A DNA stretch of 64,000 nucleotides from Escherichia coli. Its GTDB lineage: Bacteria > Pseudomonadota > Gammaproteobacteria > Enterobacterales > Enterobacteriaceae. A model generated the notes under the pieces. The model was not told where the DNA came from. It saw only the letters and a list, made by a program, of their open reading frames with translations, and searched no databases. How positions within the stretch are numbered: the stretch's first letter is position 1; every line of letters starts with the position of its first letter. Shown here piece after piece: positions 8,331-55,878 of this stretch. Both the position numbers and the translations under genes were made by a program. The stretch lies in assembly GCF_024700885.2 (NCBI RefSeq), contig NZ_CP117016.1; one strand, written 5' to 3'.

Positions 8331-11153
8331 TTACAGCATCGGCTTGAGGAAGCGCGCCGTATGCGAAGCTTCGCACTCCGCGACGGTTTCTGGCGTACCG
8401 GAGACGAGGATTTCGCCGCCGCCACTGCCGCCTTCTGGTCCCAGGTCGACAATCCAGTCAGCGGTTTTGATCACGTCGAGATTGTGCTCAATCACCACAA
8501 TGGTGTTGCCCTGATCGCGCAGTTTATGCAGTACGTCGAGCAGTTGCTGAATATCGGCGAAGTGCAGACCGGTGGTCGGCTCATCAAGAATATACAGCGT
8601 CTGCCCGGTGCCGCGTTTTGACAGCTCACGCGCCAGCTTCACGCGCTGGGCTTCACCACCAGAAAGTGTGGTTGCGGACTGCCCGAGGCGAATGTACGTC
8701 AGACCAACGTCCATCAACGTTTGCAGCTTACGCGCCAGTGCAGGTACGGCATCAAAGAACTCACGCGCCTCTTCGATGGTCATATCCAGCACTTCGTGGA
8801 TGGTTTTGCCTTTGTACTTAATCTCCAGCGTTTCACGGTTATAGCGTTTGCCTTTGCACTGGTCGCACGGTACGTAGATATCCGGCAGGAAGTGCATCTC
8901 CACTTTGATCACGCCGTCGCCCTGACAGGCCTCGCAGCGTCCGCCACGGACGTTAAAGCTGAAACGTCCTGGCGTATAGCCGCGCGCACGGGATTCCGGT
9001 ACGCCCGCAAACAGTTCGCGCACAGGTGTAAACACGCCGGTATAGGTCGCCGGGTTAGAACGCGGAGTACGACCAATTGGGCTTTGGTCGATATCGATCA
9101 CTTTATCGAAATGCTCCAGCCCCTGAATATCGCGATACGGTGCCGGTTCGGCGATGGTCGCCCCATTCAACTGGCGTTGGGCAATCGGGAACAGTGTGTC
9201 GTTAATCAGTGTCGATTTACCGGAACCTGAAACCCCTGTGATGCAGGTAAACAGACCGACTGGCAGCGTCAGCGTCACGTCTTTCAGGTTATTACCGCGT
9301 GCGCCTGTCAGCTTCAGCACTTTTTCCGGATTCGCCGGAACGCGTTTCTTCGGCACTTCAATCTTGCGTTTACCGCTCATGTACTGCCCGGTCAACGACT
9401 CCGGCACCGCCATAATCGCTTCCAGTGGACCTTCCGCGACCACTTCACCGCCGTGAACACCCGCACCAGGACCAATGTCGATCACATGGTCAGCGGCGCG
9501 AATCGCGTCTTCGTCGTGCTCCACCACAATCACGGTATTACCGAGATCGCGCAGATGGATAAGCGTACCCAACAGGCGCTCGTTATCGCGCTGGTGCAGG
9601 CCGATAGACGGCTCATCGAGCACGTACATAACGCCAACCAGGCCCGCACCAATCTGGCTCGCCAGACGGATACGCTGGGCTTCACCGCCAGAAAGCGTTT
9701 CTGCCGAGCGGGAAAGTGTCAGGTAATTCAGGCCGACGTTAACGAGGAATTTCAGGCGATCGCCGATCTCTTTAAGGATTTTTTCCGCAATCTTCGCCCG
9801 CTGACCTGCGAGTTTGAGATTGTTGAAGAATTCCATCGCATGACCGATGCTCATGTCGGAGATAGCAGGCAGCGGCGTATTCTCGACATACACATGGCGC
9901 GCTTCCCGACGCAGACGCGTCCCTTCGCAGCTGGCGCACGGGCGATTGCTGATAAACTTGGCTAATTCTTCGCGTACCGCACTGGATTCTGTCTCTTTAT
10001 AACGGCGCTCCATATTGTGCAGCACGCCTTCGAACGGATGACGACGAATGGAGGTATCGCCACGATCGTTCATGTATTTGAATTCAATGTTTTCTTTGCC
10101 AGAACCGTACAACACCACTTTATGCACGTTCGCGCTCAGGCTGCCCCACGGCGCTTCGACGTCGAACTTATAGTGATCTGCCAGCGATTTCAGCATCTGG
10201 AAGTAATAGAAGTTGCGGCGATCCCAGCCTCGAATCGCACCGCCAGCCAGCGACAGTTCCGGATTCTGGATCACGCGGTCAGGATCGAAATATTGCTGCA
10301 CGCCAAGGCCGTCACAGGTTGGGCAGGCCCCCGCCGGGTTGTTAAACGAAAACAGGCGCGGTTCCAGCTCGCGCATACTGTAGCCGCAAATTGGGCAGGC
10401 GAAGTTGGCGGAGAACAGCAGCTCTTCCGCTTTCGGGTCGTCCATATCCGCAACTACCGCGGTACCACCGGAAAGCTCCAGCGCGGTTTCAAACGACTCG
10501 GCAAGACGTTGGGTAAGATCGTCACGCACCTTGAAGCGATCAACCACCACTTCAATGGTATGTTTCTTTTGCAGTTCCAGTTTCGGCGGATCGGAAAGAT
10601 CGCAGACTTCGCCATCAATACGAGCACGGATGTAACCCTGACTTGCCAGGTTCTCCAGCGTTTTGGTGTGTTCGCCTTTGCGCTCTTTAATGATTGGCGC
10701 GAGTAGCATCAGACGCTTGCCTTCCGGCTGCGACAACACGTTATCCACCATCTGGCTGACGGTTTGTGCCGCCAGCGGAACATCGTGGTCCGGGCAGCGC
10801 GGCTCACCAACGCGAGCGTACAGCAGACGCAAATAGTCGTGGATTTCGGTGATTGTCCCCACCGTAGAACGCGGGTTATGAGACGTCGATTTCTGCTCAA
10901 TCGAGATGGCAGGAGAAAGCCCCTCAATATGGTCGACGTCCGGCTTTTCCATCAGTGACAGAAACTGCCGCGCGTAGGCGGAAAGGGATTCAACGTAACG
11001 GCGCTGCCCTTCGGCATATAAGGTGTCGAAAGCGAGCGAGGATTTGCCAGAACCCGAAAGCCCGGTCACGACAATAAGCTTGTCGCGGGGGATAACGAGG
11101 TTGATGTTTTTGAGATTATGGGTGCGGGCGCCCCGAACTTCGATCTTATCCAT
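8331..11153 (-). CDS. uvrA: Excinuclease ABC subunit A
   Basis: 940-aa [47 protein letters not shown]; two ABC ATPase modules. Confidence 0.97.
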
Positions 11154-11237
11154 TCACCTTTCCCGGATTAAACGCTTTTTTGCCCGGTGGCATGGTGCTA
11201 CCGGCGATCACAAACGGTTAATTATGACACAAATTGA

Positions 11238-11257
11238 CCTGAATGAATATACAGTAT
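11238..11257. promoter_or_regulatory. LexA box (SOS operator) in the divergent uvrA-ssb control region
   Basis: Minus-strand reading tactgtatattcattcaggt fits CTGT-N8-ACAG and matches the known uvrA operator. Confidence 0.7.
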
Positions 11258-11407
11258 TGGAATGCAATACCCGGAGTGTTGTGTAACAATGTCTGGCCAG
11301 GTTTGTTTCCCGGAACCGAGGTCACAACATAGTAAAAGCGCTATTGGTAATGGTACAATCGCGCGTTTACACTTATTCAGAACGATTTTTTTTCAGGAGA
11401 CACGAAC

Positions 11408-11944
11408 ATGGCCAGCAGAGGCGTAAACAAGGTTATTCTCGTTGGTAATCTGGGTCAGGACCCGGAAGTACGCTACATGCCAAATGGTGGCGCAGTTGCC
11501 AACATTACGCTGGCTACTTCCGAATCCTGGCGTGATAAAGCGACCGGCGAGATGAAAGAGCAGACTGAATGGCACCGCGTTGTGCTGTTCGGCAAACTGG
11601 CAGAAGTGGCCAGCGAATATCTGCGTAAAGGTTCTCAGGTTTATATCGAAGGTCAGCTGCGTACCCGCAAATGGACCGATCAATCCGGTCAGGATCGCTA
11701 CACCACAGAAGTCGTGGTGAACGTTGGCGGCACCATGCAGATGCTGGGTGGTCGTCAGGGTGGTGGCGCTCCTGCAGGTGGCAATATCGGTGGTGGTCAG
11801 CCGCAGGGCGGTTGGGGTCAGCCTCAGCAGCCGCAGGGCGGCAATCAGTTCAGCGGCGGCGCGCAGTCTCGCCCGCAGCAGTCCGCTCCGGCAGCACCGT
11901 CTAACGAGCCGCCGATGGATTTTGATGACGATATTCCGTTCTGA
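11408..11944 (+). CDS. ssb: Single-stranded DNA-binding protein
   Basis: 178-aa [47 protein letters not shown] with Gly/Gln-rich tail ending DDDIPF. Confidence 0.97.
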
Positions 11945-53240: not shown

Positions 53241-53326
53241 TAGGCCGGATAAGGTGCTTGCACCGCATCCGGCATCAACGTCTGCACATTGTCGGATGCG
53301 ACGCCGTGGCGTCTTATCCGACTTAC
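53241..53326. repeat. Pair of REP elements between phnE and phnD
   Basis: taggccggataaggtgcttgcaccgcatccggca and gtcggatgcgacgccgtggcgtcttatccgac. Confidence 0.6.
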
Positions 53327-55735: not shown

Positions 55736-55801
55736 GATGGTGACCTCAGTTAAGAGAAGCCAGTTAAGTGTAGTTCGAAATTTATACAGATGAGAGGGAA
55801 G

Positions 55802-55878
<77 letters not shown>

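Follow-up and report, generated by a model that had tools for sequence, protein, structure and literature searches.

A single LexA operator between the divergent uvrA and ssb genes of Escherichia coli, tied in position to the uvrA promoter

LexA-dependent induction has been published for both uvrA and ssb of E. coli (PMC9505508). The two genes share an SOS box which has a heterology index of 6.98, lies some 170 nt ahead of the start of ssb and overlaps the -35 element of uvrA (PMC9505508); the box and the binding of LexA to it are credited, in the citations given by that paper, to Sancar 1982, Brandsma 1983/1985 and Fernandez de Henestrosa 2000. It has been reported that ssb has three promoters and that LexA may repress only the most distal of them (PMC9505508). 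Studies from the 1980s to the 2000s conflict on the inducibility of ssb (PMC9505508). Several earlier studies, and three that used microarrays, found ssb uninduced, as recounted in the introduction of the same paper, whereas LexA-dependent induction of ssb was found there by RT-qPCR after UV and gamma irradiation, and an SOS-constitutive mutant overexpresses ssb (PMC9505508). In Salmonella a single box with a heterology index of 6.99 is shared by uvrA and ssb, and RNA-seq revealed an 11.2-fold induction of uvrA and a 9.6-fold induction of ssb (PMC8072944).

The present study deals with the same intergenic region in a stretch of the E. coli chromosome of 64,000 nt (64 kb), which is called the window here. 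The uvrA gene (8331-11153, minus strand, 940 aa) and the ssb gene (11408-11944, plus strand, 178 aa) were placed by the list of open reading frames and by the RefSeq annotation of identical E. coli DNA, where matches of 100% identity carry the labels uvrA and ssb1. Both products were identified with NCBIfam models; the UvrA equivalog NF001503 gave 1629 bits against a cutoff of 1147, and the SSB model NF006533 gave 360 bits against a cutoff of 260. The divergent spacer between the two genes extends from 11154 to 11407, with uvrA bordering it at 11153 and ssb starting at 11408, and its length of 254 bp is exactly that given in the original prediction. A 454-bp stretch spanning the site described below is present in 5425 of 5426 complete E. 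coli genomes, with an identity of at least 99% in 5406 records. As compared to K-12 MG1655, the spacer shows only two differences: at 11267 it has A in place of T, and ahead of the ssb Shine-Dalgarno sequence it has 8 T in a row (11386-11393) instead of 7. This Shine-Dalgarno sequence, CAGGAGA at 11394-11400 on the plus strand, is nearly invariant in the alignment. The A at 11267 is a minority allele in E. coli, and 241 records are at least 99% identical across the surrounding 50 nt. An Rfam scan found no RNA family within the spacer, and a consensus scan of 11000-11600 for promoters and terminators returned none at its own threshold.

Collinearity of the window with K-12 MG1655 spans the K-12 coordinates 4262757 to 4306822, at an identity of ~97.4-98%. 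A piece of ~0.5 kb that K-12 has between gltP and yjcO is absent (window ~33142-33180). From 43567, after yjcS, there is no match to the K-12 als operon and the phn, crfC, proP and pmrB genes are found instead; the window is probably without the als region. Identical arrangements are present in other E. coli strains. Rfam matches at the gathering score were the sRNA sraL/RyjA (15210-15350, minus), the fdhF selenocysteine insertion element SECIS_2 (35646-35700, minus), two REP-derived naRNA4 elements (53243-53323, plus; 55800-55877, minus) and the sRNA STnc630 (61544-61709, plus).

Pattern, position weight matrix (PWM), conservation and the published box all point to a LexA operator (SOS box) at 11237-11256, the 20-mer ACCTGAATGAATATACAGTA, to which no strand is assigned. 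Read on the opposite strand it is TACTGTATATTCATTCAGGT, which is letter for letter the SOS box published for uvrA/ssb. The core of the box, CTGAATGAATATACAG at 11239-11254, is the sole match to CTG-N10-CAG in the spacer. The site was scored with a symmetrised PWM made from 24 other LexA operators of E. coli, the site at 11237-11256 being left out. With this leave-one-out matrix the box scores 17.8 bits and ranks first among the ~64,000 positions of the window, the runner-up in the 64 kb having 11.25 bits. The training operators span 13.3-28.6 bits, and the box at 17.8 bits is within this range; by this matrix its match to the 20-nt consensus TACTGTATATATATACAGTA is that of a validated operator. 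In 200 first-order Markov simulations of 64 kb the maxima averaged 11.6 +/- 2.3 bits and 17.8 bits was reached in 1.5% of cases, while the number of sites of at least 17.8 bits expected in 254 bp is 1.6e-4. The PWM matches at 25011 (11.25 bits), 33916 (10.6 bits) and 8176 (9.8 bits) are at the chance level for 64 kb. In the spacer, taken with 10 nt of coding flank on each side, the next-best site has 3.7 bits, which is far under any validated operator, and thus there is no second LexA box. The original prediction was of a single clear SOS box between divergent uvrA and ssb, and it proposed a PWM scan for a second, weaker one; the scan upholds the single box, and the score of 17.8 bits does not fall below the threshold for an operator.

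The conservation of the box was followed in related loci. These were gathered with a degenerate pattern that covers the opening 16 codons of ssb, which makes their selection independent of the box. The search returned 120 loci, and in 62 of these a divergent uvrA start was present less than 1.5 kb from ssb. Exactly one LexA box, of 12.7-22.5 bits, was found in 60 of these 62 orthologous uvrA-ssb spacers, and the second-best site never exceeded 9.8 bits. Of 5409 matching E. coli records, 4684 have the same 36 nt at and around the box, and the other 725 differ by one base; in EC08, the single one-mismatch genome which was looked at, the change is G to A at 11236, just outside the 20-mer. The window spacer was also aligned with 28 other Enterobacterales spacers. 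It was observed that the box is conserved while the flanking spacer DNA diverges. The centre of the box, TGAATAT, is at least 90% conserved, which exceeds the needs of LexA recognition alone.

On the uvrA side of the spacer, all promoter positions, like those on the ssb side, rest on consensus matches and conservation. The matches to the sigma-70 model are not above the shuffle null, and the model was used only jointly with conservation. A highly conserved block at 11154-11167, which reads TCCGGGAAAGGTGA on the minus strand and immediately precedes the uvrA ATG, is the probable ribosome-binding block of uvrA. The most conserved block of the spacer is 11212-11233, and its core (11221-11229) is a putative extended -10 element of uvrA, minus-strand TGTCATAAT, indicated by conservation and by the sigma-70 model. 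The same model pairs this element with a likely -35 element inside the box, TATTCA at 11244-11249 on the minus strand, which lies across a 17-bp spacer in the middle of the LexA box. The box thus overlaps the only recognisable uvrA promoter, and this predicted overlap between an SOS box and a core promoter is supported by the literature. Among 61 loci, the uvrA -10 and the box are separated by 10 nt in 42 and by 12 nt in 8. This gap is fixed while the distance from the box to the ssb -10 varies, which argues, at the level of sequence, that the box is a part of the uvrA core promoter. The sequence GTTAATTAT at 11217-11225, with no strand assigned, overlaps the uvrA -10 and resembles the ArcA consensus; it is a putative ArcA site. 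What other genera mostly keep is AATTATGACACAA, not the portion that is like ArcA. Figure 1 of PMC9505508 places an ArcA site in the uvrA-ssb spacer.

The two half-sites of the box are of unequal strength. The ssb-proximal half is near consensus with 15.8 bits, and the uvrA-proximal half is weak with 2.0 bits, reading CTGA where the consensus is CTGT. The same asymmetry exists in 58 of 61 loci (60 box-bearing orthologues, plus the window). It had been held that the box is oriented as the uvrA operator. In position the box is tied to the uvrA promoter, but the orientation itself is a listing convention: the box is customarily written in the uvrA sense, and the LexA dimer that binds it is symmetric.

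On the ssb side, the best sigma-70 match near the box is tentatively proposed as P1, the distal LexA-controlled ssb promoter (11234-11263, plus strand). This candidate consists of a -35 TTGACC at 11234-11239, an 18-bp spacer and a -10 TGGAAT at 11258-11263. Its score under the sigma-70 model is 8.7 bits, not above the shuffle null of 8.8 +/- 2.0, and its hexamers are poorly conserved across genera. It would be a plausible distal ssb promoter with the box in its spacer, the assignment of the hexamers being tentative. A moderately conserved block, TTGGAATGCA, is found at 11257-11266. The change at 11236 in EC08 turns the candidate -35 from TTGACC into TTAACC.

Nearer to ssb, conservation and the top plus-strand model matches mark a set of probable promoter elements at 11344-11373, which are likely to be LexA-independent. 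They include an extended -10, TGGTACAAT at 11351-11359, conserved in the pattern TGnTAnAAT, and a second -10, TACACT at 11368-11373, conserved as TAnACT, with a -35 TTGGTA at 11344-11349. In the window these -10 elements are ~95-115 nt downstream of the box. Across loci the ssb extended -10 may be as near as 5 nt to the box or as far off as 309 nt, but measured from the ssb ATG its end falls 43-45 nt ahead in 38 of the 54 loci where the motif was recognised. The proximal elements therefore make up a separate module, which would be beyond the reach of LexA bound to the box. In the available supplements of Kim 2012 and Ettwiller 2016, consulted for transcription starts, neither ssb or uvrA nor any matching coordinate is listed.

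The original prediction also stated that ssb has both SOS-dependent and constitutive promoters, and this agrees with the literature, in which three promoters are described and the distal one alone is repressible by LexA (PMC9505508). It was further proposed that the spacing from the box to each start governs the differential induction of the two genes. Differential induction as such is supported, but it is better explained by promoter overlap than by the distance to the start codons, because the box overlaps the uvrA promoter while the ssb-proximal -10 elements lie ~95-115 nt away and at a variable distance.

Another conserved block, to which no strand is assigned, was noticed in the alignment at 11310-11332, where E. 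coli has CCGGAACCGAGGTCACAACATAG. In many other Enterobacterales genera it reads CTGGAAT-N5-TCGCA-N2-3-TAT, and the version of E. coli and E. albertii is CCGGAAC-N5-(T/C)CACA. Where the block is present, it sits 38-40 nt upstream of the ssb extended -10. In Citrobacter a second copy of the block, TGGAATGCAAAACGCA, directly follows the LexA box, at the equivalent of 11257-11273 of the window. For a sigma-54 promoter the criterion was TGG-N9-(T/C)GC, that is, GG at -24 and GC at -12 in exact spacing. A sigma-54-like spacing, GG-N10-GC, fits the block in ~20 genera, and the GG is missing in Enterobacter asburiae, Lelliottia and some other loci. In the window a sigma-54 promoter at 11310-11332 was rejected, as CCGG...TCAC alters both key elements. 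No ssb or uvrA entry was seen in those parts of an E. coli sigma-54 ChIP-seq paper (text and supplements) and of a Salmonella sigma-54 study that were available to us. A sigma-E promoter (GGAAC ... TCAAA) was rejected as well, the spacer being ~12 nt and not 16 on hand inspection of the alignment. A CRP-like site (TGTGA-N6-TCACA) is not supported, as there is one good half-site only and it is not conserved.

There are also 33 loci, of Vibrio, Shewanella, Alteromonas and relatives, in which uvrA and ssb are separated by 1.5-6.3 kb. Of these 33 loci, 14 have a box scoring 12 bits or more no further than 300 nt from the uvrA ATG, among them all 12 from Vibrio (L007, L014, L022, L036, L056, L061, L062, L065, L069, L074, L082 and L113); not one of the 33 has a box of this strength within 400 nt of ssb. 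The Vibrio uvrA boxes have 20-25 bits, are near consensus and lie ~65 nt upstream of uvrA. The Vibrio ssb gene is ~2.1 kb off, beyond two genes on the uvrA strand; in the two loci inspected, one of these appears from our own reading to start like GalU, and the other is an open reading frame of 214 aa. In the Shewanella and Alteromonas loci examined, one large open reading frame on the ssb strand stands between uvrA and ssb, presumably encoding a membrane transporter to judge by its look. Most Shewanella and Alteromonas loci (L002, L039 and others) have a box near neither gene. When the pair is split the box follows uvrA, which supports the view that it is primarily a uvrA operator. These results support the conclusion that LexA control of ssb is secondary and dependent on the adjacency of uvrA and ssb.

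Taken together, our data indicate, with a probability of about 0.93, that 11237-11256 is the classical operator through which LexA blocks the uvrA promoter and ssb P1 while the proximal ssb promoters escape. In undamaged cells a LexA dimer would occupy 11237-11256. The box would cover the -35 region of the single uvrA promoter, the extended -10 being 10 nt off, and would at the same time lie inside the core of the distal ssb promoter P1, so that bound LexA could bar RNA polymerase from both promoters. On DNA damage, RecA on single-stranded DNA would bring about the self-cleavage of LexA, and both promoters would open. With its lone promoter, uvrA is expected to be clearly SOS-inducible, and the weak half-site (heterology index ~7) may allow a substantial basal level of uvrA. 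For ssb, the proximal promoters beyond LexA would provide a high LexA-independent basal level, and it would take strong SOS induction to add a modest increment via P1. This reading starts from the observed site with its strength, uniqueness and conservation, from the fixed position of the uvrA -10 and from the conserved proximal ssb -10 elements. For inducibility, for the count of three ssb promoters and for the position of the box over the uvrA -35 we rely on the literature, and we infer the P1 hexamers and the occlusion mechanism.

It could be argued that the box is functionally a uvrA operator only, and that whatever it does to ssb follows incidentally from adjacency and hardly counts in physiology. 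The position of the box is indeed locked to the uvrA -10 and to no ssb element, but such a view is rather unlikely in the face of the LexA-dependent induction of ssb measured by RT-qPCR after UV and gamma irradiation and its overexpression in the SOS-constitutive strain (PMC9505508). The 9.6-fold induction of ssb in Salmonella, which is similar to the 11.2-fold induction of uvrA (PMC8072944), also counts against it. Cooperation of the box with another, weaker LexA site, inside the spacer or close to it, might instead set the differential induction, as at lexA or recN; a table in PMC8072944 lists multiple boxes at lexA, recN and dinI. This is very improbable here, as the runner-up in the spacer has 3.7 bits where the weakest operator used for training has 13.3 bits, no secondary site in the orthologues goes beyond 9.8 bits, and one box is given in both the E. 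coli (PMC9505508) and the Salmonella (PMC8072944) studies.

CTG-N10-CAG might also have arisen by chance in this AT-rich spacer, with no operator function, since the bare pattern is frequent (the window has 24 matches where 14 are expected). Such a chance origin is effectively refuted by the score of the full 20-mer, which was reached in 1.5% of simulated 64-kb sequences and for which 1.6e-4 sites are expected per 254 bp, by the retention of the box in 60 of 62 orthologous spacers amid diverging flanks, and by its identity to a published and experimentally studied operator (PMC9505508). Two further readings are more tentative. In the first, the box may be triple-coded, as LexA operator, as uvrA -35 and as the spacer of ssb P1. 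The weak uvrA-proximal half and the over-conserved centre would then have been selected for a high basal level of uvrA, and ssb would have come under SOS control only in the lineage where uvrA and ssb abut. In the second, the conserved TGGAAT-N7-CGCA-like block at 11310-11332 could bind an uncharacterised regulator of ssb. These readings are rather unlikely.

The site at 11237-11256, read as the classical operator described above, is a textbook SOS operator. It has little significance beyond confirmation, and the comparative results add modest detail. A box tied to the uvrA promoter, with secondary control of ssb, fits the decades of conflicting data on the inducibility of ssb.

Alpha-proteobacterial LexA recognises a motif different from the gamma-proteobacterial one. 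In Sinorhizobium meliloti the same divergent uvrA-ssb pair is under SOS control, according to what is given of Tapias and Barbe 1999 in PMC2248561. The uvrA box of Vibrio and that of E. coli are both of the gamma-proteobacterial CTG-N10-CAG type, but the Vibrio box is much closer to consensus, and the Vibrio ssb gene is distant and without a box of its own. The shared uvrA/ssb box of Salmonella enterica, although from a different species, is like that of E. coli in being single and in having both genes induced by DNA damage. The uvrA/ssb SOS box of K-12 has the same 20-mer, position, genes and arrangement as the window, with no functional difference of note. The box of the window is thus the classical, already described uvrA/ssb SOS operator of E. 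coli; it is real, conserved and ordinary.
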